Shown here in pieces: positions 988 to 56,252 of a DNA stretch of 64,000 bases (its first letter is position 1; every line of letters begins with the position of its first letter). This stretch comes from an uncultured Candidatus Saccharibacteria bacterium. Its GTDB lineage: Bacteria; Patescibacteriota; Minisyncoccia; Phycocordibacterales; Phycocordibacteraceae. Location: the NCBI GenBank assembly GCA_964638585.1, contig CAZXAN010000001.1, positions 23,454 through 87,453 of the forward strand, written 5' to 3'. The position numbers were made by a program, and so were the translations under genes. The notes under the pieces are model-generated. The model was not told the origin of the DNA. It saw only the letters and a list, made by a program, of their open reading frames with translations, and made no database searches.

Positions 988-2801
988 ACACAGAACACAT
1001 ACGAAATTTCTCTATAGTTGCGCATGTTGACCACGGTAAATCTACGCTTGCTGACCGGTTACTGGAGCGCACTGGCACTATCCCAGACAGACTTATGCGT
1101 GACCAATTTTTGGACAGAATGGATCTGGAGCGCGAGCGCGGTATCACGATTAAGATGCAACCAGTCCGGATGAAATATAAAGAGTACGTGATGAATCTAA
1201 TAGACACGCCAGGACACATAGACTTTTCATATGAAGTTTCGCGTGCATTAAAAGCAGTTGAGGGGGTGCTTTTGCTCGTTGACTCTACACAAGGTGTTCA
1301 GGCGCAGACTCTGACGACTCTCGGCGCAGCAAGGGCTGCAAATTGCACTATCATCCCTGTCGTCTCAAAGATAGATTCTCCCGCAGCGAGAGTTCATGAG
1401 GTGAGCGCGGAGCTGGCAAAACTTTTAAAAGTATCTGTAGACGATGTGATAGCTGTGTCAGGTAAGACAGGAGAAGGTGTTGAGGAATTGCTAGAGGCAA
1501 TAATTAAGCGTATACCGCCGCCGACAAGGTTAAACCTTGCGAATTCTAAAGGTTTAACCTTGTCGGCGGAGCCACGTGGAATTATTTTTGATTTCTCATA
1601 TTCAACACACAGAGGTATCGCAGTGTACTTGCGCGTCTTAGATGGCACGTTCAAAAAAGGTCAACAATTAAGATTCCATTCGGCTCATAATGAGTTTATT
1701 GCACTAGAAACAGGCATATTTGCCCCAGAAGAAAAGGCTTCAGAAGAGCTGTCTGCAGGCGAAATAGGATACATCGTGACCGGCATCAAAGAGCCAGGTA
1801 TCGTTGGGGTAGGTGACACCATAGGTGCTGTACATGGCAAGCTAGCAGCTCTAGATGGCTATGAGAAGCCTAGACCGGTCGTATGGGCGTCTGTGTATCC
1901 AGAAAATCAAGATGATTTGCCGTTACTAAGAAAATCTCTAGAGAGACTGCGTCTCTCGGATTCTTCACTCTCGTTTGAGGAGGAATCGTCCGGAGTCTTG
2001 GGTAGGGGATTCAGATGTGGTTTTTTGGGCCTTCTGCACCTAGAAATAATCACAGAACGTCTGCGACGCGAATATAGTTTAAAACTGGTTGTCACAATTC
2101 CCACTATTTCATACGTAGTCACTAGAACAAACGGAACGCGAGAAACCATATACACTCCGTCACGGTTTCCAGAGCACGGCGACATAGCGAAGATAGAAGA
2201 GCCGTGGGCTAGAGTCATCATCATCACGCCTCCGTCGGTCGTCAGTTCTCTGATTCAACTTCTCTATGATCACGAGGCAAATACTATGGCAACAGAGTCG
2301 TACCAAGATGGGAGAATAGAGATGACTATAGAGATGCCGCTTCGCGAGCTCATGCGCGGATTCTTTGATAAATTAAAAAACATTTCTTCTGGTTATGCGT
2401 CTCTCTCATATGAGATACTCCCAGAGCGCGAGGCAGATGTAGCGAGACTAGATGTGTTGGTGGCCGAAGAGCCGGTCGCCGCATTTGCGCGCGTGGTCGC
2501 GCGCAGAAGGATAGTAGAAGAGGGAGAAAAAATGGTAGAAAAATTGCACTCAATCCTGCCGAAACAGCTTTTCAATACAAAGATTCAAGCAAAAGTAGAA
2601 GGGAGAATAGTCTCGTCACGTACTCTCTCTGCAATGCGAAAAGACGTTACTGGTTACTTATATGGAGGAGACGTCTCGCGCAAAAACAAGTTGCTTGATA
2701 AACAGAAGCGCGGTAAGAAGAAAATGCTAGAAAGGGGAACGGGTAAAGTAAATATACCCGAAGACGTCTTTATGAAAATGGTGCAGTCTTCTTCAGAGTA
2801 G
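984..2801 (+). CDS. lepA: Translation elongation factor 4 (LepA/EF4)
   Basis: The N-terminus reads NFSIVAHVDHGKSTLADRLL, a G1 P-loop, followed by DTPGHIDF. A full EF-G-like domain order is present and the length is about 600 aa. Confidence 0.95.
   Translation: MNTEHIRNFSIVAHVDHGKSTLADRLLERTGTIPDRLMRDQFLDRMDLERERGITIKMQPVRMKYKEYVMNLIDTPGHIDFSYEVSRALKAVEGVLLLVDSTQGVQAQTLTTLGAARAANCTIIPVVSKIDSPAARVHEVSAELAKLLKVSVDDVIAVSGKTGEGVEELLEAIIKRIPPPTRLNLANSKGLTLSAEPRGIIFDFSYSTHRGIAVYLRVLDGTFKKGQQLRFHSAHNEFIALETGIFAPEEKASEELSAGEIGYIVTGIKEPGIVGVGDTIGAVHGKLAALDGYEKPRPVVWASVYPENQDDLPLLRKSLERLRLSDSSLSFEEESSGVLGRGFRCGFLGLLHLEIITERLRREYSLKLVVTIPTISYVVTRTNGTRETIYTPSRFPEHGDIAKIEEPWARVIIITPPSVVSSLIQLLYDHEANTMATESYQDGRIEMTIEMPLRELMRGFFDKLKNISSGYASLSYEILPEREADVARLDVLVAEEPVAAFARVVARRRIVEEGEKMVEKLHSILPKQLFNTKIQAKVEGRIVSSRTLSAMRKDVTGYLYGGDVSRKNKLLDKQKRGKKKMLERGTGKVNIPEDVFMKMVQSSSE
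1518..1569. repeat. Perfect inverted repeat inside lepA CDS (21-bp arms ccgccgacaaggttaaacctt, 10-nt spacer containing GAATTC)
   Basis: Read directly: arms 1518-1538 and 1549-1569 are exact reverse complements. The repeat encodes an extra segment (TRLNLANSKGLTLSAEP) between the G domain and domain II, relative to canonical LepA. Confidence 0.8.
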
Positions 2802-3090
2802 AGAGATCGCGTCGACCATCGAACACACGGAGTATTCGAATACTTTCTGAGTCCATTGCTTGTTCATAGAAAACGATCCACGGTTTCATCGTAAAGCTAC
2901 GCGGGTTCCCAGCGAGCTCTTTATGCGTTCGGCCGATATCTGGCCAGTGAGCGAGCAGGGTAAATAGATGGTAGAAGCGCGTGAGAATTTTTTCTGCCAG
3001 AGTATCGTCGCTGACGAGTTCTAGATATTTTGCGAGCAAAGCAAGGTCATTTGTTGCTTCCTCCGAAAGAACAAAGTACGGCTCGCGCAT
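2770..3090 (-). CDS. parE: Type II toxin, ParE/RelE family
   Basis: 106 aa with the ParE-like pattern (..KPWIVFYEQAMDSESIRILRVFDGRRD..). It sits immediately downstream of a small ORF in classic antitoxin-toxin order. Confidence 0.65.
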   Translation of the reverse strand: MREPYFVLSEEATNDLALLAKYLELVSDDTLAEKILTRFYHLFTLLAHWPDIGRTHKELAGNPRSFTMKPWIVFYEQAMDSESIRILRVFDGRRDLSTLKKTAPFS

Positions 3091-4789: not shown

Positions 4790-4937
4790 CACGGATAGAT
4801 AATGTGCCAGCCACGCAAGTTTTAACGCCAATACGTAAAATAGACTGTCTATGCAGGGTATTTCGTGTACTCAATAACGTGCCTACCAAGAAATTCCGTT
4901 CAGTTTATCCACAGACACAACGAGAATCGAACTTTCT

Positions 4938-5235: not shown

Positions 5236-5424
5236 GGGAAAAGTCCTGTGATCGTTTGATACGGGGGAATAGCTTCTGTCTCTAAACTACGCTTGATTTG
5301 ATTACTGTCAAGGACGCCGACTAGGTGGATAACTCCTTGACATGGAAACAGGGCATGATAAGGTAAAGGAACAAATCGCCAAACGGCGTCCGAGAACGCC
5401 CACCGCAAGGTGGGCTTTCGCTTT

Positions 5425-5805: not shown

Positions 5806-6223
5806 TACGCATCAGAATAGCAAGCTGATTGCGTATGTCGAGAGCCTAGTTGGTACATTCTCACCCCTGTACCTAGATCTTCTTGTCATATAGATTGGTA
5901 TGCATGCAAATCGACGACACAGACTTTAAAGAAATCCTCGAACTTCTTCCGCAGGAGAATCTTCCGTCTGATCCAGCTGAAGCTCGTAGGGCAGTCGAGA
6001 ATTTTGTTGACCTCGTTGAACTCTTAATGAGACCACTGCCACTTCCTCCTGCTGGGCCATCCGCACTCAGACAGCCTTCTTCAGATCTTCCGGAACAAGC
6101 GCCTGTATCTCTGCCACGTCCTCAATCAACTTCAGAATTTGAGGGTCGCGATTGATGTATCGGGTTCGAACGTCGTTGATGAGCCTGCACTCGTGTGATA
6201 TACTTACTAAAATAATAAAAAAT

Positions 6224-6466
6224 ATGGATAAAAACATCACCATTTACAGCACGCCGACTTGTCACTTCTGCCAGATGGCAAAGGACTTTTTAAAGGAGAA
6301 GGGCATCGGTTATACCGAGTTTAACGTCGCGAGCGACTTAGAAAAGCGCCAAGAGATGATACAGAAGTCTGGTCAAATGGGAGTACCGGTGATATTTGTT
6401 GGCGATGAGTTGATTGTCGGTTTTGACAAAGAGAGACTCTTCTCTCTGCTTGGCATAACCGCGTAG
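6224..6466 (+). CDS. Glutaredoxin-like protein (NrdH/YruB-type, CxxC = CHFC)
   Basis: The track ORF 6152..6466 probably starts at the internal Met (MDKNITIYSTPTCHFCQMAKDFL..). It has a CxxC thioredoxin-fold motif and is about 80 aa. Confidence 0.7.
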   Translation: MDKNITIYSTPTCHFCQMAKDFLKEKGIGYTEFNVASDLEKRQEMIQKSGQMGVPVIFVGDELIVGFDKERLFSLLGITA

Positions 6467-6472
6467 CGTTCG

Positions 6473-6544
6473 GCCCCCTTAGTTCAATGGATAGAACGGC
6501 TCACTCCTAACGAGCTGATTCAGGTTCGACTCCTGAGGGGGGCA
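6473..6544 (+). tRNA. tRNA-Arg(CCT)
   Basis: Acceptor GCCCCCT/GGGGGGC with a G-U at pair 7-66; D-stem GTTC/GAAC; anticodon loop CTCCTAA; T-arm TCAGGTTCGACTCCTGA. There is an A-C mismatch closing the anticodon stem. Confidence 0.75.
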
Positions 6545-6566
6545 CATGCTGTTATAATATTGACAT

Positions 6567-6839
6567 ATGGACCCTGAGATAAAACGTCAGCTTGAAGAGA
6601 TACACGCACTAGCCAAGGACAATCATCGTTTGCTTCGTTCTATGCGCAGACATCAGCTGTTCGGTACTATCGTGACGATTGTGTTCTGGCTCGTCATTCT
6701 TATCACCCCGTTCTACATCTATCAACAATATCTCCAACCTCTCGCCGCAAAATTTTCCGCGCCCAGCTCTGCGAATTCTGGAGGCCCTACTTTCCCAGAT
6801 ATTCAAAACCTGATAAACTCATTTAAAGCAGGGCAGTAG
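6567..6839 (+). CDS. Small hypothetical membrane protein
   Basis: 90-aa ORF between two tRNA genes with one clear TM helix. No family recognised. Confidence 0.35.
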   Translation: MDPEIKRQLEEIHALAKDNHRLLRSMRRHQLFGTIVTIVFWLVILITPFYIYQQYLQPLAAKFSAPSSANSGGPTFPDIQNLINSFKAGQ

Positions 6840-6848
6840 CCCCGTATT

Positions 6849-6921
6849 GCCTAGGTAGCTCAGCTAGTAGAGCATTCCCCTGAAGAGGGAAGGGTCATCA
6901 GTGCAAATCTGATCCTAGGCA
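6849..6921 (+). tRNA. tRNA-Phe(GAA)
   Basis: Acceptor GCCTAGG/CCTAGGC, D-arm GCTCAGCTAGTAGAGC, anticodon stem TTCCC/GGGAA with loop CTGAAGA, T-arm ATCAGTGCAAATCTGAT. Confidence 0.9.
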
Positions 6922-7051
6922 CAGATATGTATTGGGTACAAGTCGCAGTCCCCTTGTGGGGGAGCGGCAGGGCGAGGGTTTCGACATTGACTATAGACAT
7001 AGATATAGCGTATATTCAGCCTCGGACACATCATCTTATAGAGAGGGGCAA

Positions 7052-7777
7052 ATGGAAACCGAAGGAATTGAACGGTATTTGAAAGTAGAATTTCGAAACA
7101 AGAATCTGCTCACGCAGGCGCTTACTCATCGGTCGTACATCAACGAAAACCGTAAATGGCCAGTCCCTCACAACGAGCGATTGGAATTGCTCGGCGACGC
7201 AGTACTCGAGCTGATTGTTACCGAGTATCTGTTGAAAGCTTTCCCTAAAGAACCCGAGGGGAGGATTACAGAATTGCGATCTGCGCTGGTGTGTACCTCG
7301 ATGCTTTCTCAAGTTGCGGATGACTTACGCATATCCCGCTTCATGTTCCTCTCACGGGGACAGAAGAAAGACAACGAACGTGCACAGCAGAAAATTTATG
7401 CAGATGCGGTCGAAGCCATATTCGGAGCTCTCTATGTCGACCAGGGTATCGCTGAAGTAGAAAAGTTAGTTTCGCGTCTCATTCTGCGCGAGCTAATGGA
7501 CATAATCAAGGCAGGCACAAAACCTGCAAAAAGTTTGGTCCAAGAGTTTGCGCAGGAGCACTTCGGCGTGACCCCCAGTTATAAAACAATAGAAGCAACA
7601 GGCCCAGATCATGCGAAATGTTTCAGGGTCGCCATCTGTCTCGGGAACGACATCCTTACGTCCGCAGTAGGATTATCAAAGAGTGAAGCCGAGACTGAAG
7701 CTGCAAAGATTGGTTATACAGCATTACGATTCAAACTTCGCTCACGAGAGACAGAGGAAGAAGATATAGAGGAATAA
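7052..7777 (+). CDS. rnc: Ribonuclease III
   Basis: The RNase III signature NERLELLGDAVLELIVTEYL is followed by a C-terminal dsRBD. Start placed at METEGIERY, which has a GAGAGGGG Shine-Dalgarno; the track ORF begins upstream at 6932. Confidence 0.9.
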   Translation: METEGIERYLKVEFRNKNLLTQALTHRSYINENRKWPVPHNERLELLGDAVLELIVTEYLLKAFPKEPEGRITELRSALVCTSMLSQVADDLRISRFMFLSRGQKKDNERAQQKIYADAVEAIFGALYVDQGIAEVEKLVSRLILRELMDIIKAGTKPAKSLVQEFAQEHFGVTPSYKTIEATGPDHAKCFRVAICLGNDILTSAVGLSKSEAETEAAKIGYTALRFKLRSRETEEEDIEE

Positions 7778-7842: not shown

Positions 7843-8277
7843 TCAGTGAGGTTTGAACCGCCTCCATTCCCCGACCATGATGCGCTCGGGGATCACGCAC
7901 GACATGGTGTTGTAGCGCAGGTGGTAGAGGGCTCCTAGCCCTTGACCCGGGATTTTCCCGACATGCGGTACCATCACCGGTAAGATCGCTGGCAGGTCCC
8001 CCTTAAAGCAAGCGAATTTCACCTCCCTGAAGAACTGCTCCGCCTGGTCGTAGAGAGACCGATAAACAGGAACAGCACTTTCCTTCAGAGCGGCCAAGGT
8101 CTCGCTCAATTTGAGCAATATCTGATCGCGCCCTCGGTAGCGCGCCCAGTTGACGACACCTTGCCGATCCGGAAGGTTATACTCGTTGTTATTGGTACCC
8201 TGCATGGAACGTATGGGCCGAGTTGACGGTGTAATCGTCCTGCCGACCTTTGTTGCAACAGCACTTTGTTGATTCAT
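7843..8277 (-). CDS. Hypothetical protein (GC-rich)
   Basis: 144-aa ORF, no family recognised. GC appears elevated relative to neighbouring genes. Confidence 0.4.
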   Translation of the reverse strand: MNQQSAVATKVGRTITPSTRPIRSMQGTNNNEYNLPDRQGVVNWARYRGRDQILLKLSETLAALKESAVPVYRSLYDQAEQFFREVKFACFKGDLPAILPVMVPHVGKIPGQGLGALYHLRYNTMSCVIPERIMVGEWRRFKPH

Positions 8278-8345
8278 AACCTATCCTTTCTATCGTTAAC
8301 AGACCAAAAACCCACTTCTTTCTACCGCAAAATAGTCAATTTAGC

Positions 8346-8372
8346 AAATAAAAAGCCGCCTGTGACAGCGGC
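8346..8372 (-). terminator. Intrinsic terminator downstream of rpoD
   Basis: On the minus strand the hairpin gccgc-tgtcacag-gcggc is followed by TTTTT. Confidence 0.45.
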
Positions 8373-8396
8373 CTGTCAATACGTCAGAGATATTGC

Positions 8397-10118
8397 TCAC
8401 GGACTTGCCAGATAATCCATACGGATGTTGGCTATTGTCGCACGAAGCTTCTTGTCTCGCTCAACTATCCACTTCATCCGCTGGCAAGCATGGAGCACGG
8501 ACGTATGGTCTCTCTTGAATATCTTTGCTAGCTTGACCAAACTGAAGTTGAAGTCCAAGTTAAGCAAGTACATCACGAGGTGACGTGGCCACACGAATGA
8601 ACGGCGCCGAGACACACCGAGAACGTCATCCACACTTACACCGTACGCTTTAGCTACCGTCTGAAGTACTTTTTGTGAAGCGTCTTCTTTTTCTAATGTA
8701 ACGACAGAGCCGACATCTGCGACGATTGGATCCTCTTCCGGTGGCTCGACTACAACTGCGGGTTCGCGATCAAGCTGTATAGCTCGTAAAACCTTCTTCA
8801 CAGCTCGAGCCGCGACTTGACGAGCATACTCGCGCGTGAAGCCGAACTTGTTTCCGATGTCCTCGAGCGTGAACGACCTGTCGCCGTTAACTCCGGTTCT
8901 GAGACTGAGTACCTCCCGTTCTTGTTGTGTAAGTGTACGGAAGGCTCGCTCTACTTCATCGGCGTTAGCCCTTTCCATCAAGACATCTTCTTGGGTCGGA
9001 CTGGTATCGGCAATGAGATCGAGGAGAGGAGTGTCACTATCTCCAACCTCTTCGTCCAAGGAAACCATATTTTGGAAGCGAAGCGCCTCTTCGAGAAGAT
9101 TGGCCTCGCTGGGAGCGAGCTCCATTGCCGACGTAACCTCTCGGAACGTCGGTTCGCGACCTAGTGTGCTTGTGTACTCGCGTCGTGCCTTAAAGTACTT
9201 GCGCATAGTCTCACACAAGTGAACGGGAATGCGAACTATCCGATCGGTATCCATGATCGCTCGTGTGATGACCTGGCGGATCCACCACGTGGCATACGTA
9301 GAAAACTTGTAGCCGAGATGATAATCGAACTTCTCGACCGCTTTCAGTAGCCCGATGTTTCCCTCCTGAATTAGATCGAGAATGGTGAGACTTTCTGCAG
9401 TGCGAGTGTAGCGTCTCGCGATTGAAACCACGAGCCGCAAATTCGCCTTGATGAATCGCTCTTTGGCGACATTGTCTCCCTTTTCGATCTTTTGCATCAA
9501 TGCCACTTCCTCGTCCCTTGAAAGAATCCTGAACTGTCCGGCCTCCTGCAAGTATTTGTACAAGAGGTCATCGTGGTCCGCCCAGGGCAATTCGTACAAA
9601 GGTTTTGAGGTGACGAGTGGGTCTTCGATATCTTCAATTGCTTCTTCTACCGAGAGATCGACTTCTGCGAGAGTTGAAACATCTTCCGTTGCCGATTCTT
9701 CGACCTCGATTAAAGGCTCGTCGACTCGATTTGTCGGATAGAGTGGTGTGGCGCTAGGCCTCGAAACCACTTGTTTCTTCGGAAACTCCAGTACTTCCGC
9801 CTTGCCCGATACGCCGAGCTTGGCATTTTTCAGATATTCGCCCAGCTGAGTGACAAAGAATGAGAGAAGCTCTCGGTCTTTAATCACGCGAGCTGGCAGT
9901 AGTTCGGTAATTTCCGTAGGAGTTATATACCCGCGGCGTTTCGCGATTTCCAGGATGTGCGAATTCTTTGAGTTTAAGGTCCGTTTATTAAGTTCAGCCA
10001 GGAACGAAGGCACTACTTCTCCCATATTTACGACATTGGTCTTGTTCATTCTTACCCCTGTAAACGTTTGAGTGGTTAGTGGAAAGATCGGGTTTACAAT
10101 CTGATGCAAATCTCGCAT
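8397..10118 (-). CDS. rpoD: RNA polymerase sigma-70 factor (RpoD-like) with a C-terminal DnaA domain-IV-like DNA-binding domain
   Basis: Regions 1.2 through 4 are recognisable ([18 protein letters not shown].. and the 4.2 [30 protein letters not shown]). An extra roughly 100-aa tail, [34 protein letters not shown].., matches the DnaA C-terminal DnaA-box-binding domain almost motif for motif. The true start may be the internal Met at about 10049. Confidence 0.9.
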
Positions 10119-10228
10119 ATCTTACACAGCTTGTCAACGTATAGACAGACTGCCGTTTTAGTGTAAAGTTATTTTCGGAACGGTTTTTTTGACTTCAATC
10201 AAACGCTAGACAACAGGAGAACAAAATC

Positions 10229-12301
10229 GTGCTTACTCCCTTTGGGTACCAGCAGGAATGTCTTGCAGTTACGGAAGCAGCGCGTCGTGACCATGAAAAA
10301 AGAGCTCTCGTCGTAATGGCAAGCGGGCTTGGAAAGACTGTTACCGCCGCGTTTGACGCCAAGTCATGGCGCCAGAAGAACACGGGTCGGTATCTCTATC
10401 TCTGCCACCAGAACGATATTCTCTATCAGGCCAAGACAACCTTTGAGGGTATCGTTGATCAAGGACAGACCTATGGGTACTTCCATGGGCAAGAAAAAAG
10501 CGCCGGGGCTGATTTTCTTTTTGCGTCGCTTCAGACGATGGAGCGCCACAAAGAGTCTTTTGACCCTCGTGCGTTCGCGTATATTCTGGTTGACGAAAGT
10601 CACCATTCTAGTGCGCGGACGTATCGCACCACAATCGAGTATTTTAAGCCGGATTTTTTGTTGGGGGTGACCGCTACTCCCGATCGGCTTGATGAACTTA
10701 ACATCCGCGATATCTATGGTGAGGAGGTGTACTCCTTGCCACTCGACGAGGCTATGGCGAGAAAGTTGGTAACACCAGTGGATTATCGGCTCCTCACTGA
10801 CGAAATACAACTTTCTGGCTACATTGAAACCGGCGGGGGGCGAATGAGCATCAACAAGCTCAATCGGAAGATTTTCATCCCGCGTCGGGATGAGGAGATT
10901 GCGAAAATCATCGCTCGTCATGTCAGTGGTGTGAAAAGTCCTCGCGTTATTATCTTCTGCAATTCGGTTCAGCACTGCGACCACCTGGCCAAGTTTATTC
11001 CGAACTGTTTCGCCATCCACTCGCGCGTTCCGTTAAAAGAGCGCGCCGTACGGTTGGAGCTGTTTCGGCAAGGCTTGGTAGGCACGGTGCTCGCCGTTGA
11101 CGTCTTCAACGAGGGTATAGACATACCACAGGCGAATGTCATCGTTTTCCTGCGGTCAACTGACTCTCCGACAGTCTTTCTCCAGCAATTGGGGCGAGGT
11201 CTGCGGAAGAATGAGGAAAAAGAAAAAGTGATCGTCCTAGATTTTGTCGCTAACTGCGAACGGATCAAGATGGTGCACGACCTCTATCAGTCGGTTGAAC
11301 GAAAAAAACAGCAAGTGCAAAAACAGTCGCAGCAGTCGAGCGGGCTTGAACCGATGACACTCAACATCAAGACGGGTGAATTCAAGGAAAAAATAGTACC
11401 CATTCTTAATCTGTTGGAACGGGTTCATCCGAGCTTCTATCCGACGTGGAAAGAGGCTGCAGAGGCCGCCTGCGAGCTCGGTGTTGGTTCAAAGGACGAG
11501 TACGCGAAGCTGTACCTGAAAGACCCACGCCTCCCGTCTAGCCCGCGCTACACATACCGCACCGATTTCCCAGGCTGGGAAATCTTCCTCGGCAAGCGAA
11601 CGGCAGAACGATACGAAACGTGGCAAGAAGCGAGCAAGGCCGCCATAGCGCTTGGTATAAAAACGCCAGCTGAATATAAAGAGCGATATACCGAGGACAC
11701 TAAACTACCGGCTGACCCGCCGTCATACAAAGAGTGGCCACGGTGGCCAGTGTTTCTGGGAGGCGAATTGAGAGACCTCTATCCTGACTGGGAGCAAGTA
11801 GCGAAGGTGTGCAAACACCACAAAGTTCAGTCGGTGGCCGAGTACTGGGACCTGTGTGATAAGGACAAGCGATTGCCACGACGACCCCATGATGTCTACG
11901 AAGACTTCCCGGGATTTGCGAAAATGCTTGGTACTAAGCGCATCGTTGAGGACCCATATCCGACCTGGCAGGAAGCGAGTAGAGCTGCAAAAGAGCTTGG
12001 CATAAAAAGTTCTTTTGATTACACGAAGAAGTACAAAAAGAATACTCAGCTCTATGCAGCGCCCGCCGATCGGTACCCGGATTTCCCTGGATGGGCTACC
12101 TTCTTAGGTATTCCAGAACGAGAAGTTGTTCAGGATCCATACCCGACGTGGCAAGAAGCAGGAAGAGCCGCAAAGACTCTAGGGATCCAGAGCGGGACTG
12201 AGTATCACCAACGGCGTCGAGAAGATCCACGTCTGCCCGGAGTGGTTCATCGATATAAAGGGTTCCCGGGCTGGAACAAATTCCTGGGTAAATCTCGCTA
12301 A
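10229..12301 (+). CDS. SF2 DEAD/DEAH-box helicase (ResIII-like) with five C-terminal helicase-associated (HA) repeats
   Basis: Walker A MASGLGKT and motif II VDESHH are present, followed by a Helicase_C region (QQLGRGLR). The C-terminal 290 aa comprise five repeats of about 55 aa each, YPTWQEAxRAAKELGIxSxxEY..LPxxPxxY.xFPGWxxFLG. GTG start with AGGAGA Shine-Dalgarno. Confidence 0.8.
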   Translation: MLTPFGYQQECLAVTEAARRDHEKRALVVMASGLGKTVTAAFDAKSWRQKNTGRYLYLCHQNDILYQAKTTFEGIVDQGQTYGYFHGQEKSAGADFLFASLQTMERHKESFDPRAFAYILVDESHHSSARTYRTTIEYFKPDFLLGVTATPDRLDELNIRDIYGEEVYSLPLDEAMARKLVTPVDYRLLTDEIQLSGYIETGGGRMSINKLNRKIFIPRRDEEIAKIIARHVSGVKSPRVIIFCNSVQHCDHLAKFIPNCFAIHSRVPLKERAVRLELFRQGLVGTVLAVDVFNEGIDIPQANVIVFLRSTDSPTVFLQQLGRGLRKNEEKEKVIVLDFVANCERIKMVHDLYQSVERKKQQVQKQSQQSSGLEPMTLNIKTGEFKEKIVPILNLLERVHPSFYPTWKEAAEAACELGVGSKDEYAKLYLKDPRLPSSPRYTYRTDFPGWEIFLGKRTAERYETWQEASKAAIALGIKTPAEYKERYTEDTKLPADPPSYKEWPRWPVFLGGELRDLYPDWEQVAKVCKHHKVQSVAEYWDLCDKDKRLPRRPHDVYEDFPGFAKMLGTKRIVEDPYPTWQEASRAAKELGIKSSFDYTKKYKKNTQLYAAPADRYPDFPGWATFLGIPEREVVQDPYPTWQEAGRAAKTLGIQSGTEYHQRRREDPRLPGVVHRYKGFPGWNKFLGKSR

Positions 12302-12329
12302 CCAGTTGTCCTTTGTTCTCATTCACACG

Positions 12330-12362
12330 CCACAGATGATGAGTCTGTGGTGTTTTCTTTTT
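12330..12362 (+). terminator. Intrinsic terminator of the helicase gene
   Basis: Hairpin ccacaga-tgatgag-tctgtgg followed by tgttttctttttt. Confidence 0.6.
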
Positions 12363-12369
12363 TACATAT

Positions 12370-12401
12370 AAAAACCACAGACTACTTACGAGAGTCTGTG
12401 G
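12370..12401 (-). terminator. Intrinsic terminator of the minus-strand small HTH gene (same stem sequence as the facing terminator)
   Basis: On the minus strand, hairpin ccacagact-ctcgtaagt-agtctgtgg followed by TTTTT. Confidence 0.55.
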
Positions 12402-12606
12402 TACGGAAGTTTTTCTTTTTATGTTTGGCGAGTTTCTTGCGGAAGTAGCCAGCCATTATGGCATTCACTGTGTAGTTATCTAGACCTATTTCTCGTATCT
12501 GTTTCGAAAGTCGAAGAATAGTAGCGACCTCGTCGTCACTCATTCCGTATTCGCGTGCAATGTCTTGAAGTGAAATCATGTCTGATTCTCCATGGAAACC
12601 ATCCAT
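12382..12606 (-). CDS. Small HTH-containing protein (sigma-70 region-4-like helix-turn-helix)
   Basis: 74 aa. The segment ISLQDIAREYGMSDDEVATILRLS looks like a helix-turn-helix. Weakly supported. Confidence 0.3.
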   Translation of the reverse strand: MDGFHGESDMISLQDIAREYGMSDDEVATILRLSKQIREIGLDNYTVNAIMAGYFRKKLAKHKKKNFRTTDSRK

Positions 12607-12682
12607 AGATATAGTACCGAGATAATTCTGTGAAAGTTACTCCTCATATGAAATATTTTGAGTCCATTTTATAGAAACGAAA

Positions 12683-12712
12683 AGCCCACGATGTAGCTTG
12701 GGGCTAATCGTG
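12683..12712 (-). terminator. Putative intrinsic terminator
   Basis: A 7-bp stem (cccacgat/atcgtgg) has a T-rich tail on the minus strand, downstream of the 12734..13231 gene. Confidence 0.3.
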
Positions 12713-12733
12713 GACCTGGTGCAACCTGCGCTG

Positions 12734-13231
12734 CTAGACTGTCGGAAGGAAGTCCGGTGCATCTGGATCTGATGCCAGGAGTGTCGCGTAGTGAGTCGCT
12801 TCAGCGCACAGAGCAGCCGAATTCATTCGTGCGAACATCTCGTCAAAGTACGGCTGAACTCCGCTGACAGCGCTGATGACGCCGTCGACGATAGCGCTAC
12901 CCCAGTACAGCGGATCTCCTGGAAGAAGCATGTGTGGTTTGGTCATGATAACGTCGCGTGACGAGAGTCCCGTTCGCCACGAAATCATGGCTTTGCCGTA
13001 CGCATACTTGCGGTACGGCCACTTCCATTCCGCTTCGACGCCGAATGAGTACTCGAATAGAATCGGGAGGGGCCGTCCGTTTTCATATCGAATGTTTGGG
13101 TCGAGAGCGACTATATGCAAGTCTCCACCTTTGACGTGATTACCGCTGATTGCATTCCTGATGCCAGGGAGTACGAACGCCTCAAAAGCATTATATGCTT
13201 TCGTTTTGTCGAGAAACGGTATTGGATTCAC
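12734..13231 (-). CDS. Hypothetical protein, possibly GlcG/HbpS-like (DUF336)
   Basis: 165 aa and GC-rich. There is a weak resemblance to DUF336 heme-binding proteins (GSAIVDGVISAVSGVQ). Confidence 0.3.
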   Translation of the reverse strand: MNPIPFLDKTKAYNAFEAFVLPGIRNAISGNHVKGGDLHIVALDPNIRYENGRPLPILFEYSFGVEAEWKWPYRKYAYGKAMISWRTGLSSRDVIMTKPHMLLPGDPLYWGSAIVDGVISAVSGVQPYFDEMFARMNSAALCAEATHYATLLASDPDAPDFLPTV

Positions 13232-44849: not shown

Positions 44850-45663
44850 GTGAGGGACGTCTAACGTCCCTCACTCGAAGGACCCGGTGCTGTGTAGTGC
44901 AGAGTCGTCAGGTATATTGCGGCCGAGAATCACGTCTCGGGCGTACTCGCGGTAATCATCTGGACTGTAAAGCGATGTAAGGAACTTCTTGTCGACAATT
45001 GGCCGATTGAAAGTTCCAACATAATCACCTAGGCTCGAATACGGATATGCACTCGCCCAGGCATAGGCTTCGTTAAAGTTACTCCGCGCCCAATTGTAGC
45101 CCTTAGGGTGAACATCGAATGCGTTTTTCACTTGGATGTACGCCGATACGTATCGGAAATAATTGTCATCGTCCACAGTTCGCGCACAATATGAACCTTG
45201 GAAGAGGGATCCTTTTTCACAATAGCGTTCGTTAAATTTCTTTGCCATCCCGGTGCCTAGACGATGCATAAAGCGTACGACACCACCTTCCTTGATTTCC
45301 TGGAGCAGAAGGTGAAAGTGATTCTCGACGAGTCCAAAAGCGACTAGTCCAACATGTGAATCACGTTCTGGCCAATGAGGTGGCCGCTCGAAGGTTCGGT
45401 GAACGTGAGCGTCATATAAATCGCGATGCCAATTTGGAGAAGTGAAGCTGTCGTTGAAGTGAGTCAGCATCAGCAAGAATCTGAATCGATCTGCCTCATC
45501 ACGAACGATAGGTAATCCTCGCGTTCCTCGTTGAACGACGTGAACGTACGACCCAATGCTGAACGGCTCCTTCCGCATACACCAATCATACACGACCTGA
45601 GGGACGTTAGACGTCCCTCAAATGTCCTTGTGTGCATAAGTGAGGGACGCTAAGCGTCCCTCA
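44850..45663. mobile_element. REP-RAYT unit: IS200-like tyrosine transposase flanked by three REP palindromes
   Basis: GAGGGACG-N5-CGTCCCTC at 44850-44874 overlaps the RAYT stop. GAGGGACG-N5-CGTCCCTC at 45598-45620 lies 5 nt upstream of the start. GAGGGACGC-N3-GCGTCCCTC sits at 45641-45663. Confidence 0.7.
44871..45593 (-). CDS. REP-associated tyrosine transposase (RAYT; IS200/Y1-transposase-like)
   Basis: YVHVVQRGTRG..FLLMLTH.. and the HUH motif ENHFHLLLQE, then FMHRLGTGMAKKFNERYCEKGSLFQGSYCAR (catalytic Tyr region) and WARSNFN..SSL. Collinear with PF01797-type RAYTs. Confidence 0.75.
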   Translation of the reverse strand: MYDWCMRKEPFSIGSYVHVVQRGTRGLPIVRDEADRFRFLLMLTHFNDSFTSPNWHRDLYDAHVHRTFERPPHWPERDSHVGLVAFGLVENHFHLLLQEIKEGGVVRFMHRLGTGMAKKFNERYCEKGSLFQGSYCARTVDDDNYFRYVSAYIQVKNAFDVHPKGYNWARSNFNEAYAWASAYPYSSLGDYVGTFNRPIVDKKFLTSLYSPDDYREYARDVILGRNIPDDSALHSTGSFE

Positions 45664-52341: not shown

Positions 52342-53639
52342 AAATATCTCTGTTCCAAGCGATCTTACTCGGAGTGTTCAGTATCGGGGCGCTTATGGGT
52401 CTCTTTGTTTTTGCTACACACACCAACAACAATAGTGGTGGCGAAAACGATATTGGCACAGTAGTTATATGGGGCACTCTACCTAAGACAAGCATGGACA
52501 ACGTTTTGTCGTTAGCGGCGCAGGCAAACGAGGCTCTCAAGAATTTGTCATATGTGCAGAAGAGTCCATCAGTACTGTCATCAGAGCTTGCGTCTGCGAT
52601 AGCCACCGGTGTAGCACCTGACCTAATTCTCGCTTCACAAGAAGAGCTCCGATCAATCGCTAAATATCTATCACCTATACCCCTTGATATGCTCTCACAG
52701 GCTACATTTACCAGCACGTTTATTGAAGAGGGAGACGTATTCGCGACAAATGGCGGGTACTACGGCATACCGTTTCTTGTTGACCCTCTTGTACTCTTCT
52801 CTAATCGCGACATCCTCTCGTCTGCTGGTATCGCACGGCCACCCGCGACTTGGGAGGCGTTAACTGGTCTTGTACCAAGTGTAGCGCAGATGACACCAGC
52901 ACGACAAATAACTCGTGGCCTTATAGCACTCGGCACTTATGACAATGTTCGCAATGCGCGCGGGATACTCTCATCACTCTTTTTACAACAAAGTATTCCA
53001 ATTTCTTCATATAACAACGGTGGTCTAGGGGCCAATATTGGGTCTAATACTTCAAGCGGTCAATCTCCAGGCAAAGCTGTTGTAGGCTTCTACACACAGT
53101 TTGCCGATCCGTCTAAGGTCTCGTATACGTGGAATGCTTCTTTGCAAAGTTCTGACCAAATGTTTCTAGCAGGAGATCTGGCGCTTTACCTTGGCTATGC
53201 ATCTGAAGCACGATATATGACACAGGGCAATCCAAATCTTAACTTCGCGGTTACTGCTTTGCCACAACCTGCCACTGCCAAATTTAGAAATGCTTATGGG
53301 CTACTCTACGCATTTATGATCCCACGCGGAGCCAAGAACTCGTCGGGAGCGTATCAGTCTGCAGAATTCTTCACTACTCCTACAGCACAGATCTCGTCTG
53401 CCTCGGCTACTGGGCTCGCACCGTCTACTCTAAGCCAGCTCGCGAGCGTGCCAGACGACCCTGTCGCTGTGGTTGCGTATGCCGAGGCACTCTACTCAAG
53501 AGGGTGGCTGTCCCCAATGCCTGCCGACACAGACCGCGTCTTCTCGGGTATGATTAGGGATGTGATAAGCGGTCGCTCATCTATAGACAATGCGCTCATC
53601 TCTGCCGAGCGCTCTCTAACCCAACTACTACAACAATGA
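52338..53639 (+). CDS. Membrane-anchored extracellular solute-binding protein (SBP family 1-like)
   Basis: N-terminal TM, then TVVIWGTL.., APDLILAS.., GGYYGIPFLVDPLVLFSNRDILSSAGIARPPATWEAL (the YgvP..YNkdl..PkTWdEl hallmark). No ABC permease or ATPase genes are adjacent. ATGA overlap with the next gene. Confidence 0.55.
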   Translation: MKISLFQAILLGVFSIGALMGLFVFATHTNNNSGGENDIGTVVIWGTLPKTSMDNVLSLAAQANEALKNLSYVQKSPSVLSSELASAIATGVAPDLILASQEELRSIAKYLSPIPLDMLSQATFTSTFIEEGDVFATNGGYYGIPFLVDPLVLFSNRDILSSAGIARPPATWEALTGLVPSVAQMTPARQITRGLIALGTYDNVRNARGILSSLFLQQSIPISSYNNGGLGANIGSNTSSGQSPGKAVVGFYTQFADPSKVSYTWNASLQSSDQMFLAGDLALYLGYASEARYMTQGNPNLNFAVTALPQPATAKFRNAYGLLYAFMIPRGAKNSSGAYQSAEFFTTPTAQISSASATGLAPSTLSQLASVPDDPVAVVAYAEALYSRGWLSPMPADTDRVFSGMIRDVISGRSSIDNALISAERSLTQLLQQ

Positions 53640-54112
53640 AAACTCGTTATTTCGCCGTATTCGCATTCTCACTTTTTGCATTCGTGCCAACTACACACGC
53701 TGCCTGTATTTCTGACCCAGAGGCACCTAGCGTATATTTTGAAACAAGCACGGGTGCTCCATGTACACCGCAAACATCGGGACCAGCAATCACAAATCCT
53801 GGAAATAATCCGCAGATTACAAACCCAGGCACAAGTGTCACTCTCATCAACCCGCTCAAGGGCGGGGCAACACTAGAGTCATTTCTTAGTAGCATCTTAG
53901 ACTTCGTGATACGCATCGGCGCCATCATAGTCGTCTTGATGCTAGTCTTTGTCGGCTTCAAGTTTGTCATGGCACAGGGCAAGGACAGCGAGCTTGTAGA
54001 AGCAAGAAAGATGCTTCTCTGGACTATAGTCGGCGCACTGATCTTGCTTGGAGCCAAGGCTATACAAGTGGCTATAACAGAAACTGTGAAGGCGCTCTCT
54101 GTCGGCGGCTAA
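53636..54112 (+). CDS. Pilin-like small protein P1 (signal peptide, Cys/Pro-rich variable region, conserved C-terminal 2-TM hairpin; TrbC/VirB2-like topology)
   Basis: Signal peptide MKTRYFAVFAFSLFAFVPTTHA, variable region with 2 Cys, then TM1-(QGKDSELVEARK)-TM2. This hairpin is shared with the five downstream paralogs. Confidence 0.6.
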   Translation: MKTRYFAVFAFSLFAFVPTTHAACISDPEAPSVYFETSTGAPCTPQTSGPAITNPGNNPQITNPGTSVTLINPLKGGATLESFLSSILDFVIRIGAIIVVLMLVFVGFKFVMAQGKDSELVEARKMLLWTIVGALILLGAKAIQVAITETVKALSVGG

Positions 54113-54125
54113 ATATGATATTTGC

Positions 54126-54395
54126 ATGACATTTGCTCAATTCGTCGGTAACGGTCAATCAGGCATTATTGGCGCTATCAATACTGCCGTAGTGCCTGTC
54201 ATCTTCGCATTTGCATTCGCCGCATTCATCTGGGGTGTTACGAAATATTTCTTTATCAATGCAGACGATGAGACCAAGCGTGCCGAAGGCAAACAATTCG
54301 TACTATGGGGCATACTAGGCATGGTCGTACTGTTCTCTGTCTGGGCGCTCGTGAATATGTTGTTATCCACTCTAGGCATCGCGCCGAGGGCTTAA
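54126..54395 (+). CDS. Pilin-like small protein P2 (2-TM core only)
   Basis: IIGAINTAVVPVIFAFAFAAFIWG-..DDETKRAEGKQFVLWG-ILGMVVLFSVWALVNML: the shared core motif. Confidence 0.6.
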   Translation: MTFAQFVGNGQSGIIGAINTAVVPVIFAFAFAAFIWGVTKYFFINADDETKRAEGKQFVLWGILGMVVLFSVWALVNMLLSTLGIAPRA

Positions 54396-54412
54396 TATGT
54401 AATACTTAGACT

Positions 54413-54859
54413 ATGCAACAAACATTTACACAAACGTTCTCGTACGGTTTTAGTAGCGGATTTGGTGGTCCATATGCAACTGCGTGTGGGACAAACTATT
54501 TCTGCAGTCTCGCAAACATCATTATTAACACCATTAATGGCGTTCTCGTCCCACTTCTCTTCGCAATTGCATTTATCGTATTTCTATATGGCATAGCCAA
54601 GGCCTACATATTTTCTGGTGGCGAACCAGACAAGGTGAGCGAGGGACATAAGCTGATACTCTGGGGCTTGGTAGCCTTTGCCGTGATGATATCTGTATGG
54701 GGGCTTGTAAATATTGTCGCATACAGCTTCGGCCTCAATGGCTCTTATGCACCGCCAACTCCGACCTCGTATTCTGGGCAAAGTGTTCCTGGCACGTATG
54801 GTGGACAACCGCCAGGGTATTTAGAATGTCCGAAAAAGCCAGACGGGTCTTGTATCTAA
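54413..54859 (+). CDS. Pilin-like small protein P3 (Gly/Ser-rich N-terminus, Cys-containing C-terminal tail)
   Basis: Core IINTINGVLVPLLFAIAFIVFLYG..EPDKVSEGHKLILWGLVAFAVMISVWGLVNIV. Tail ..PPGYLECPKKPDGSCI. Confidence 0.6.
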   Translation: MQQTFTQTFSYGFSSGFGGPYATACGTNYFCSLANIIINTINGVLVPLLFAIAFIVFLYGIAKAYIFSGGEPDKVSEGHKLILWGLVAFAVMISVWGLVNIVAYSFGLNGSYAPPTPTSYSGQSVPGTYGGQPPGYLECPKKPDGSCI

Positions 54860-54875
54860 TCTATATAAATAAAAT

Positions 54876-55397
54876 ATGAAAAAAATCTCACTCCTCATTA
54901 CAATTCTCGCACTAGCTACGTCCTTTTCTATTCCAGTGGCTACCTCTGCTGTAGGTGTTGATGGCGCTTGCGATGACACTCTTGCCAGGTGTGACAGTGG
55001 TCTCACATGTTCTCTCGGTAAATGTTCTGTAGTTGGCGTTGGCCCAGGAAATACAGGAAATACAGGAAATGCTGGCAACAGTGGAACTGGTGGCACCCCA
55101 GGTAGCATCAATCAGACATACCTGACTTATTACTACACCCTCATCTTAACGATAATTAACTCATACCTCGTCCCGATACTTATCGCCATAGCATTTATAG
55201 TGTTCTTGTATGGCGTATACGAATACTTCATCCTCGGTGCCGCAGAAGAGGATAAGCGCAAAGAGGGTAGACAGTTCGTCTTGTGGGGAGTTATCGGCTT
55301 CGTCATAATAGTTTCGATCTGGTCTATTGTGAATATAGTTCAAAGCACGGTGATACCTGCAGGGCAGAACAACCGTCCGACCTATCCGACTCTATAA
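54876..55397 (+). CDS. Pilin-like small protein P4 (signal peptide, Cys-rich plus GNTGNTGNAGNSG repeat variable region)
   Basis: Signal peptide MKKISLLITILALATSFSIPVATSA, 6 Cys, a Gly-Asn-Thr repeat, then core IINSYLVPILIAIAFIVFLYG..EEDKRKEGRQFVLWGVIGFVIIVSIWSIVNIV. Confidence 0.6.
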   Translation: MKKISLLITILALATSFSIPVATSAVGVDGACDDTLARCDSGLTCSLGKCSVVGVGPGNTGNTGNAGNSGTGGTPGSINQTYLTYYYTLILTIINSYLVPILIAIAFIVFLYGVYEYFILGAAEEDKRKEGRQFVLWGVIGFVIIVSIWSIVNIVQSTVIPAGQNNRPTYPTL

Positions 55398-55481
55398 AAC
55401 CTTATCCACACAGGGCGTTATAGAGCATTGACCGCAGTGCTAGAAAAGCTACAATTATCTCATTATTCGTTTATTTGTATT

Positions 55482-55853
55482 ATGAAAAAAACACTTGCCA
55501 TTACTTCTTTAACAATCGCATCGTTTGCCGTACCGCTAGTGTCTATGGCCGCTGTTAGCAACCTTTCAGAGTTTGGAGGGTTTATTATCGGTATCATCAA
55601 CAATATTCTCGTACCGGTACTCTTCGCCATAGCATTTATCGTCTTCTTGTGGGGCGCATTCTCGGTCTTTATTCTTGGACACGACTCTGAAGAGACAAAG
55701 GAGAAGGGTAAGAATCTTATGCTATGGGGTCTTATTGGTTTCTTCGTCATGGTCTCTGTGTGGGGTCTCGTTAACCTGCTTACTGGCTCTATCCAGTTTG
55801 GCAATCCAGCTCAACAGACTCCTCCTGCCGCTCGAGGTACACAGCCTATATAA
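55482..55853 (+). CDS. Pilin-like small protein P5 (signal peptide plus 2-TM core)
   Basis: Signal peptide MKKTLAITSLTIASFAVPLVSMAAVS, then core IINNILVPVLFAIAFIVFLWG..SEETKEKGKNLMLWGLIGFFVMVSVWGLVNLL. The track ORF starts earlier at a TTG at 55428. Confidence 0.6.
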   Translation: MKKTLAITSLTIASFAVPLVSMAAVSNLSEFGGFIIGIINNILVPVLFAIAFIVFLWGAFSVFILGHDSEETKEKGKNLMLWGLIGFFVMVSVWGLVNLLTGSIQFGNPAQQTPPAARGTQPI

Positions 55854-55861
55854 GATAAGTA

Positions 55862-56149
55862 ATGGCTGTTCTAAACGAGTTTCTTGTTAAGGTTGTTACG
55901 CAGATAGTCAATCCGATTATCCTGCTTCTCTCTGCCGCCGCTTTTGTGGTATTTGTCTGGGGCGTGTTTGAGTTCATAGCGCACGCAGGAGACGAGACTA
56001 AGCGTACAGAGGGCCGTAAGGCTATCGGCTGGGGGCTCATCGGGCTAGTGATAATCTTTGGTGCATACGGCATAATCAATGTCGCTCTCGGCACATTTAA
56101 CCTAGGCACTATTGAATCTAAACTCCCTCCAAAATCTGCGACACCGTAA
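55862..56149 (+). CDS. Pilin-like small protein P6 (2-TM core only)
   Basis: VVTQIVNPIILLLSAAAFVVFVWG..GDETKRTEGRKAIGWGLIGLVIIFGAYGIINVA. Confidence 0.6.
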   Translation: MAVLNEFLVKVVTQIVNPIILLLSAAAFVVFVWGVFEFIAHAGDETKRTEGRKAIGWGLIGLVIIFGAYGIINVALGTFNLGTIESKLPPKSATP

Positions 56150-56176: not shown

Positions 56177-56252
56177 ATCCAGCACCTAGTTTTGTTGCAA
56201 AACTAGGTGCTGGATAAAAAAAGGCCACCGCAAGCGGTGGCCTTTGAGTTTG
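56177..56252. terminator. Bidirectional terminator region: an 18-bp perfect palindrome with 3-nt loop (56177-56215), then a GC hairpin ggccaccgc-aa-gcggtggcc plus T-tract
   Basis: atccagcacctagttttg / caaaactaggtgctggat are exact reverse complements. The second hairpin at 56223-56242 is followed by tttgagtttg on the plus strand and has a T-run on the minus strand. The region sits between the convergent pilin-like operon and the 56261 gene. Confidence 0.6.

Follow-up and report, generated by a model that had tools for sequence, protein, structure and literature searches.

At a promoter, a sigma factor ordinarily recognizes just the -10 and -35 elements, and any further specificity is left to separate activators. 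The locus analyzed here, in a 64-kb stretch of contig CAZXAN010000001.1 (assembly GCA_964638585.1; hereafter the window), raises the question of what a sigma factor might do with a third DNA-reading domain of its own. On the reverse strand, a single open reading frame (ORF) encodes a sigma-70 protein followed by a tail that an earlier note on this DNA had likened to domain IV of DnaA, the domain with which the replication initiator binds DnaA boxes. We find that the tail is a true DnaA domain IV homolog, in an intact gene under selective constraint, and that the same architecture recurs in dozens of distant proteins, across many bacteria that have not been cultivated.

A sigma-70 protein with a DnaA domain IV tail

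The gene and its predicted control elements, all on the reverse strand, are laid out as follows. DnaA_C stands for the Pfam domain Bac_DnaA_C, and pLDDT for the predicted local distance difference test score of AlphaFold2.

8397-10118, reverse: longest ORF of the sigma-DnaA_C gene, 573 amino acids (aa) plus a stop codon at 8397-8399; an independent assembly also calls a 573-aa gene
8397-10049, reverse: probable coding sequence, 550 aa, starting at M24; the 550-aa protein P0001 is 100% identical
10109-10137, reverse: predicted promoter, a consensus match with -35 TTGACA at 10132-10137, a 17-nucleotide (nt) spacer and extended -10 TGcGAGATT at 10109-10117
9774-10049, reverse: lineage-specific N-terminal helical domain, region 1.1-like, residues 24-115, pLDDT ~90
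9567-9773, reverse: acidic disordered spacer, residues 116-184, pLDDT 35-46, holding a recombination breakpoint at ~9780
9474-9566, reverse: sigma-70 region 1.2, residues 185-215, Pfam PF00140 (27.8 bits, cut-off 22)
9240-9452, reverse: sigma-70 region 2, residues 223-293, Pfam PF04542 (71.3 bits, cut-off 24), with the -10 recognition and melting motif
8985-9212, reverse: sigma-70 region 3, residues 303-378, Pfam PF04539 (33.7 bits, cut-off 25.3)
8790-8945, reverse: sigma-70 region 4, residues 392-443, Pfam PF04545 (37.9 bits, cut-off 24.1), with the region 4.2 helix-turn-helix (HTH) for -35 recognition
8700-8768, reverse: flexible, acidic, proline-rich linker, residues 451-473, pLDDT ~40 in the full-length model
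8400-8699, reverse: DnaA domain IV-type HTH domain, residues 474-573, Pfam PF08299, pLDDT 96-97
8350-8372, reverse: probable intrinsic terminator, read from the sequence: GC-rich hairpin (GCCGCTGTCACAGGCGGC), then a run of T

Because the ATG at 10118 falls within the predicted extended -10 element, translation probably begins at M24 (10049) and yields a 550-aa protein. The promoter element, TTGACA-N17-(TGn)GAGATT, is kept in the window and at L001, L002, L004 and L013, which are most of the loci whose upstream sequence was read, tailed and tail-less alike. In the full-length AlphaFold2 model (predicted template modeling score, pTM, 0.39), the sigma core and the small N-terminal helical domain are confident, two stretches are disordered and the C-terminal bundle is very confident. 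The interval singled out by the earlier note, 8397-8720, corresponds to residues 467-573 and the stop codon, and so takes in the end of the linker and the entire DnaA-like domain. Its figure of about 100 aa for the tail suits the domain (~97 aa), whereas the whole stretch beyond region 4 runs to ~125 aa and includes a disordered linker of ~25-30 aa between region 4.2 and the tail.

Several lines of evidence identify the tail. The Bac_DnaA_C model (PF08299) matches residues 482-547 at 65.1 bits (E 5.9e-18; gathering cut-off 31.5) over profile positions 2-68 of 69, and sequence comparison with solved structures retrieves DnaA domain IV of 1J1V (E 2.5e-10) as well as 2HCB, 1L8Q, 8BTG and 3PVP. 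A tail-only AlphaFold2 model has a pLDDT of 92.7, and its 12 best matches in the PDB are all DnaA domain IV. The model superposes on 1J1V, the complex of E. coli domain IV with a DnaA box, with a template modeling score of 0.87 (normalized to the target) and a root-mean-square deviation (rmsd) of 1.6 Å over 93 columns, and its fold also matches 3PVP, 8BTG, 1L8Q and 2HCB. Thus both the profile search and the structure prediction proposed in the earlier note bear out its assignment of the tail, five Pfam domains place the complete sigma-70 and the DnaA-like domain in one ORF, and the ORF translation and the 1J1V alignment confirm the peptide strings that it quoted from the window and from E. coli DnaA. 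Sequence identity to E. coli DnaA 374-467 is 33%. The resemblance ends with domain IV, however, as no Bac_DnaA or DnaA_N match (AAA+ domain III or domain I) occurs anywhere in the sigma protein by Pfam; with domains I-III and thus the AAA+ module missing, and the domain placed on a sigma C terminus, the protein is not an initiator.

We take the base-contacting residues of DnaA in 1J1V to be R399, P423, D433, H434, T435 and H439. In an alignment with ~200 DnaA_C domains, the tail is identical to E. coli DnaA at five of these six positions and differs at P423, which is V here and P in the ortholog P0002. Sigma-linked DnaA_C domains in general keep R399 (83%), D433 (76%), H434 (75%) and T or S at 435 (83%).

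A fused ORF could in principle arise when a sequencing or assembly error joins two adjacent genes, but nothing was found in favor of this, and we regard it as scarcely credible here. An independent ENA assembly (the 105-kb contig L009) matches the window at every position for 12.8 kb, a stretch that takes in the full 1722 nt of the ORF, and the protein is present in Logan assemblies too (P0001). Three orthologs, P0002, P0003 and P0004 (72, 73 and 63% identity), carry the same tail and the same five Pfam domains and stay in a single frame across a linker whose length varies; the fetched contigs of two of them (P0002, L001; P0004, L004) share the window's neighbors, a divergent helicase gene and a convergent RNase III gene. 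The tail is the most conserved part of the protein, with 84, 86 and 68% identity in the three orthologs, and is under purifying selection. Between the window and L001, the ratio of nonsynonymous to synonymous substitution rates (dN/dS) is 0.06 for the tail, 0.11 for the core and 0.36, the highest of five regions, for the linker; against L004 the values are 0.15, 0.16 and 0.17, with the linker close to core and tail. These ratios are approximate because dS is near saturation. Linker identity (0.56-0.58) is the lowest of the five regions apart from the acidic spacer, and linker length varies among the orthologs and across the family (median 49 aa), as expected of a tether. Finally, the architecture is common to dozens of distant proteins, as described below.

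Mosaicism of the locus and recurrence of the architecture

Comparison with relatives draws on two conserved neighbors and on sigma genes that occupy the same site with no tail.

10229-12301, forward: superfamily-2 helicase gene (ResIII, Helicase_C and C-terminal INT_rpt by Pfam), divergent from the sigma gene
7052-7777, forward: RNase III gene, convergent with the sigma gene
L002, 3869-5347, and L003, 3809-5293: the tail-less sigma genes compared

The tail-less sigmas P0005 and P0006 (loci L002 and L003) and the sigma of L013 sit in the same position, beside the helicase at L002 and L003. The helicase, kept at L001-L004, L006-L008 and L014, is 78-83% identical to that of the window at tail-less loci and 80% at tailed loci, and the RNase III of relatives is 74-76% identical; the neighborhood with RNase III is kept even where the helicase is 39-47% identical. 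Among tail-less loci, the convergent RNase III gene is seen at L013, and L002 has a DEAD/HA2 helicase downstream instead. Promoter and N-terminal domain are common to near relatives at ~70% nt identity. At the protein level, the N-terminal domain is 64-74% identical across tailed and tail-less relatives (70-74% for the tail-less ones), whereas the tail-less cores are only ~40% identical. In a sliding comparison, nt identity between the window and L002/L003 falls from ~0.7 to 0.2-0.4 at ~9780, within the acidic spacer, and stays low through the end of the gene, so that the 3' two-thirds (core, linker and tail) behaves as an exchangeable cassette; the same comparison with L001 remains at 0.74-0.84. 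Near relatives thus share the 5' third and carry either this core with its tail or a different core and a separate DnaA_C gene, a mosaicism that is unusual for a sigma gene.

These separate genes lie beyond the shared helicase, two genes away from the tail-less sigma, at L002:1035-1526 (163 aa) and L003:1010-1522 (170 aa), and the tailed loci (the window and L001) have no other DnaA_C gene. The complementary distribution of fused and split forms suggests that the module may act in cis or in trans. The two standalone proteins begin with a Cys-rich, zinc ribbon-like motif, ERLCxxCRSPLS...DRCxxH, and this part could be what docks on sigma or on RNA polymerase (RNAP). In the window, a small ORF at 12382-12606 was considered as a remnant of a standalone DnaA_C gene and rejected, its matches being insignificant (E 0.04 and 1.5).

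To place the architecture more broadly, an exhaustive HMMER search with residues 387-573 covered 1.84 billion cluster representatives, and domains were parsed for the best 150 matches. At least 54 of these 150 representatives have sigma domains followed by one to four DnaA_C copies. The arrangements were:

regions 2 and 4, then one or more DnaA_C: 28 of the best 150 representatives
region 2, then DnaA_C: 3 of the best 150
region 4, then DnaA_C: 23 of the best 150
DnaA_C-only arrays of 2-5 copies: 21 of the best 150
reverse order, as in the alphaproteobacterial protein GafA discussed below: 2 of the best 150

Tandem arrays of two to four copies follow the sigma domains in P0142, P0146, P0150 and P0200, with three or four copies in P0146 and P0150, and arrays of three to five copies with no sigma domain occur in P0144, P0148 and P0179. 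Such arrays, with sigma or alone, suggest proteins that read arrays of box-like repeats. In each of eight proteins sampled, curated Pfam models find sigma-70 regions along with Bac_DnaA_C; the latter passes its cut-off in seven and falls short in P0288 (28.3 vs 31.5 bits). Even the distant members P0185 (L006, GCA_023267275.1) and P0170 (L014) still adjoin the same helicase and RNase III. Directly after the tailed sigma of L006, at 11815-12870, is a 351-aa protein with sigma-70 region 4 and a sub-threshold HARE-HTH match (22.9 vs 25.9 bits), a further unusual protein that incorporates part of a sigma factor. A second synteny group (L019; L020/21) has its tailed sigma upstream of alaS, infA, rpsM, rpsK, rpsD and rpoA, and there the tailed protein averages 58-59% identity to canonical RpoDs.

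Other collections gave little. GTDB species-representative genomes, searched with an alignment of region 4 and tail, yielded a single weak region 4 match and no fusion, and JGI metagenomes scanned with the N-terminal domain yielded one short tail-less locus, L013. Viral contigs in IMG/VR gave one DnaA_C-only match and no fusion; a phage origin of the close clade is therefore not supported. The closest standalone relatives of the tail say nothing about function, P0127 being a prophage gene and P0123, on a contig rich in errors, probably a piece of a genuine dnaA. A 170-aa standalone DnaA_C protein at L016:10001-10513 lies in a prophage-like early/replication module (integrase, RecT, S24 repressor, NusG-like protein and portal), and proteins that consist of DnaA domain IV alone are thus also phage genes.

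Housekeeping or accessory sigma

The best explanation of the gene, judged by its sequence, is that its product is a functional member of the sigma-70 family in a Paceibacteria (Patescibacteria, or candidate phyla radiation, CPR) bacterium. Regions 1.2, 2, 3 and 4 all score above their Pfam cut-offs, Foldseek places the full-length model best on SigA/RpoD chains of holoenzyme structures, and sequence and alignment show the residues for -10 and -35 reading and for melting to be conserved, in the 2.3-2.4 motif and in TRExxRQ of region 4.2. For region 1.1, the Pfam model Sigma70_r1_1 matches weakly (14.1 bits vs a cut-off of 22.5), and a small helical N-terminal domain is confidently predicted. 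The placement of the organism comes from the LepA encoded in the window, which shows 80-93% identity to proteins labeled Paceibacterota, Minisyncoccia, Parcubacteria or Patescibacteria.

The earlier note went further and called this the housekeeping sigma, a status that the data leave at roughly even odds. RpoD models head the NCBIfam matches, yet none comes near its cut-off (NF006666, 266.6 bits vs 572; TIGR02393 RpoD_Cterm, 238 vs 354), and the protein scores under half of every RpoD equivalog cut-off apart from the latter model's C-terminal one; it also differs from RpoD and SigA in its extra C-terminal DNA-binding domain and its mosaic core. The alternative is an accessory sigma: a fast-evolving, horizontally exchanged factor that would use its tail in the way proposed below to serve a small, possibly mobile-element-linked regulon, with a canonical rpoD elsewhere in the genome. 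We judge the chances of this alternative to be about equal to those of its being wrong. Every RpoD equivalog cut-off is missed, the core is ~44% identical to canonical Patescibacteria RpoDs that are ~68% identical among themselves, and the 3' two-thirds of the gene has been exchanged between near relatives. Moreover, L020 has two sigma-70 genes two genes apart (5816-7237 and 8001-10145), and L006 is surrounded by defense and mobile genes. Set against this, the region 1.1-like domain and region 1.2 are features of group 1 sigmas, the canonical promoter-reading residues are present and the viral contigs searched gave no close relative. In other lineages, furthermore, it is the tailed protein that comes closer to a canonical RpoD: P0194 has 59% mean identity to canonical RpoDs, and at L020 the weakly DnaA_C-tailed 714-aa protein has 58%, as compared with 47% for the tail-less sigma two genes upstream. 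The genome visible to us is the 64-kb window and a 10-kb flank (~74 kb); no second sigma gene occurs in the 64-kb window, and the sigma gene does not adjoin dnaG.

Two other kinds of sigma-like protein were compared. ECF41 and ECF42 are group 4 sigmas in which a C-terminal extension modulates activity, but those extensions are regulatory (SnoaL-like or TPR) rather than DNA-binding HTH domains, and extracytoplasmic function (ECF) sigmas lack regions 1.2 and 3, both of which are present here. MzaA, of the MZA anti-phage system, is the only match in a defense library (PADLOC, 160.9 bits); we rejected it as a generic match to the sigma core (NCBIfam NF041931, 252.9 bits vs a cut-off of 800), and no Mza partner was found among the neighboring proteins scanned.

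Role of the tail

A sigma-70 to DnaA_C fusion is not described in the full-text literature that we searched, coverage of which is incomplete, so that this is absence of evidence only. The nearest published system is GafA of R. capsulatus, in which an N-terminal DnaA-like HTH is joined to a C-terminal sigma-like DNA-binding domain and which is split into two neighboring genes, GafY and GafZ, in Hyphomicrobiales and Caulobacter (PMC9638019, PMC9632790). HdaB (CCNA_01111) is an earlier name of GafY (PMC9632790, PMC7049699), which binds DNA upstream of promoters, contacts domains 3-4 of RpoD and aids RNAP at promoters whose -35 element is weak (PMC11150451). The parallel is that a DnaA domain IV-like HTH is paired with a sigma-type domain, fused in some lineages and split in others. 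GafA, however, carries its DnaA-like domain at the N terminus, and its resemblance to sigma is remote and partial, so that the order is reversed relative to our full, tailed sigma-70; GafA also has a central omega-binding region (DUF6456; features per PMC9638019), to which the tailed sigma has no match. HdaB is small and standalone and lacks R399 (PMC7049699), whereas the tail is fused and keeps it. By their published descriptions, GafA and GafYZ are an alphaproteobacterial family that activates gene transfer agents (GTAs) and is tied to GTA clusters, which sets the tailed sigma apart; among the 30 larger window ORFs scanned, no capsid, portal or terminase match indicated GTA-like genes, and housekeeping genes were found (lepA, ftsZ/A, gyrA, topA and those for aminoacyl-tRNA synthetases). 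Judged by its sequence features, then, the tailed sigma is not DnaA, an ECF sigma, MzaA or a member of the GafA/GafYZ family.

We propose that the tail is a built-in upstream DNA-binding module, the covalent counterpart of the pair formed by GafY and sigma-70; in our estimation this proposal is about as likely to be right as wrong. The region 1.1-like domain and regions 1.2-4.2 would carry out canonical -10 and -35 recognition with the residues noted above, and the tail would act as a third sequence-specific reader tethered by the disordered linker of ~25-30 residues. While region 4 occupies the -35 element, the tail could extend to DNA a few helical turns farther upstream and engage a 9-bp DnaA-box-like site there. 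Such binding might stabilize the holoenzyme at a subset of promoters, making the tail in effect a built-in activator, and in equally close relatives the same arrangement could operate in trans, through a tail-less sigma and the separate DnaA_C gene at the same locus. In this picture, that the tail binds DNA, which motif it reads, where the site lies and that it activates are all inferred. The most economical expectation is that the tail binds DNA specifically, perhaps at a DnaA-box-like site, because the base-contact residues are conserved, including the R399 that is absent from HdaB. Likewise, tethering of RNAP to DnaA-box-like DNA is plausible because an intact sigma-70 is joined to a DnaA domain IV that retains its box-reading residues.

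Five observations weigh against this proposal. First, TTATCCACA with at most one mismatch occurs 22 times in 64 kb, as compared with 12.7 +/- 3.6 expected, a mild over-representation, and only four of the 22 DnaA-box-like 9-mers are intergenic, with no significant enrichment there (p = 0.10). Second, one of ~14 intergenic TTGACA sites has a DnaA-box-like neighbor (5306-5342), and no pattern in the window fixes the position of DnaA boxes relative to TTGACA or -35 elements. Third, phylogenetic footprinting shows the conserved promoter of the sigma gene itself to have no DnaA box, the conserved blocks upstream of the gene being explained by two divergent promoters. Fourth, the standalone DnaA_C proteins of the tail-less relatives are not the closest relatives of the tail but rank 74-99 of 204, so that direct orthology with the neighboring gene is not supported and the fused/split relation is positional rather than a demonstrated fission or fusion. 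Fifth, the complementary pattern amounts to two loci versus two.

The intergenic DNA tells more about the sigma core. TTGACA is the most enriched intergenic hexamer, with 10 of its 24 copies in the intergenic 8% of the window, which indicates the use of canonical -35 elements. A de novo search for k-mers enriched between genes found nothing beyond TTGACA and terminator hairpins. If the tailed sigma serves most promoters, then most promoters do not need the tail.

At 5306-5342, a divergent TTGACA pair flanks the DnaA-box-like TTATCCACC, the sole such box beside a -35-like element in the window. Perfect TTATCCACA boxes number two in 64 kb, at 4905-4913, between a tRNA-Gly gene and a terminator hairpin, and at 55402-55410, between paralogous small genes. 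The latter belong to a tandem array at 53636-56149 of six small paralogous membrane proteins; these share the motif ...FIVFLWG...K..G...LWG..G..V..S.W..VN and recall the small pilin-like or VirB2-like proteins often encoded in CPR genomes. DnaA-box-like 9-mers lie between array members at 54363 and 55402, and the upstream regions of the members share no recurring element. Just beyond the array, at 56177-56215, a perfect inverted repeat, ATCCAGCACCTAGTTTTG...CAAAACTAGGTGCTGGAT, is probably a bidirectional terminator and is the source of the top intergenic 8-mers.

Coupling to replication, the alternative raised by the earlier note, would have the tail recognize true DnaA boxes, whether at oriC or in promoters regulated by DnaA. 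The sigma or the holoenzyme might then be a competitor of DnaA, or might be brought to the origin, for instance to activate it by transcription, which would tie the initiation of transcription to that of replication. The five identical base-contact residues and the superposition on the DnaA-box complex would suit such a role, as would the ~1.7-fold excess of DnaA-box-like 9-mers in the window. We nevertheless consider it unlikely. The 64-kb window contains neither dnaA nor oriC, and the best 500-bp cluster of DnaA boxes scores 8 against a null maximum of 8.0, which is not significant, so the suggested link to oriC and competition with DnaA are not established. Sigmas with two to four tandem DnaA_C domains and arrays of DnaA_C alone look more like a diversifying transcription-factor module than like an initiator mimic, and the precedent that has been studied, GafY, acts on transcription (PMC11150451). 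By analogy, the published GafY/HdaB work points to transcription activation, not replication coupling. The bolder form of the idea, in which a primary-type sigma reads true DnaA boxes and RNAP and the initiator compete or cooperate at oriC and DnaA-regulated promoters, seems to us a little more doubtful again. If true, however, it would give bacteria with very small genomes and few regulators a direct connection between the start of transcription and the replication cycle. More broadly, tethered DnaA-type domains, one to four per sigma, would in that case amount to a three-element promoter code in uncultivated bacteria.

Alternatively, the tail might not bind DNA at all. It could contact a protein (RNAP, DnaA or the neighboring helicase) or fold back on the sigma core in an autoinhibitory or anti-sigma-like manner, as in extended ECF sigmas. 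DnaA domain IV is a known protein-contact surface, and HdaB, which is DnaA domain IV-like, binds HdaA and was proposed to act by protein contact (PMC7049699). The conserved helicase could be such a partner, and may be associated with RNAP; its further matches are weak ones to SWI2/SNF2 and XPB-like proteins, and in PADLOC it matches only the helicase cores of restriction enzymes. By contrast, the DNA-contact residues of the tail, R399 among them, are conserved under strong purifying selection, and the linker is predicted to be disordered in the full-length model. A tail with no DNA-binding role is, to our minds, the least probable of these functional alternatives.

The surroundings of the locus are chromosomal, with lepA, murJ, ftsZ, ftsA, gyrA, topA, dprA, aminoacyl-tRNA synthetase genes, tsaD and seven tRNA genes in the window. 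The DNA that separates lepA from the sigma locus contains several tRNA genes and small ORFs with no annotation. Two further features are:

44871-45593, reverse: IS200-like Y1 transposase domain (Pfam Y1_Tnp)
~2770-3090, reverse: ParE-type toxin gene overlapping the end of lepA, from the gene table of the identical contig L009

With the built-in upstream module as the preferred reading, the finding has several implications. First, a complete sigma-70 would have its own extra sequence-specific DNA-binding domain, borrowed from the replication initiator. Second, the design is recurrent, with dozens of clusters at 50% identity, up to four copies of the domain per protein and a canonical-looking RpoD that carries the tail in at least two other lineages. 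This supports the idea that partnership between a DnaA domain IV-like protein and sigma-70, as in GafY and GafA, is a general and old solution. The design may also help to explain how genes are regulated in CPR bacteria that have very few transcription factors.

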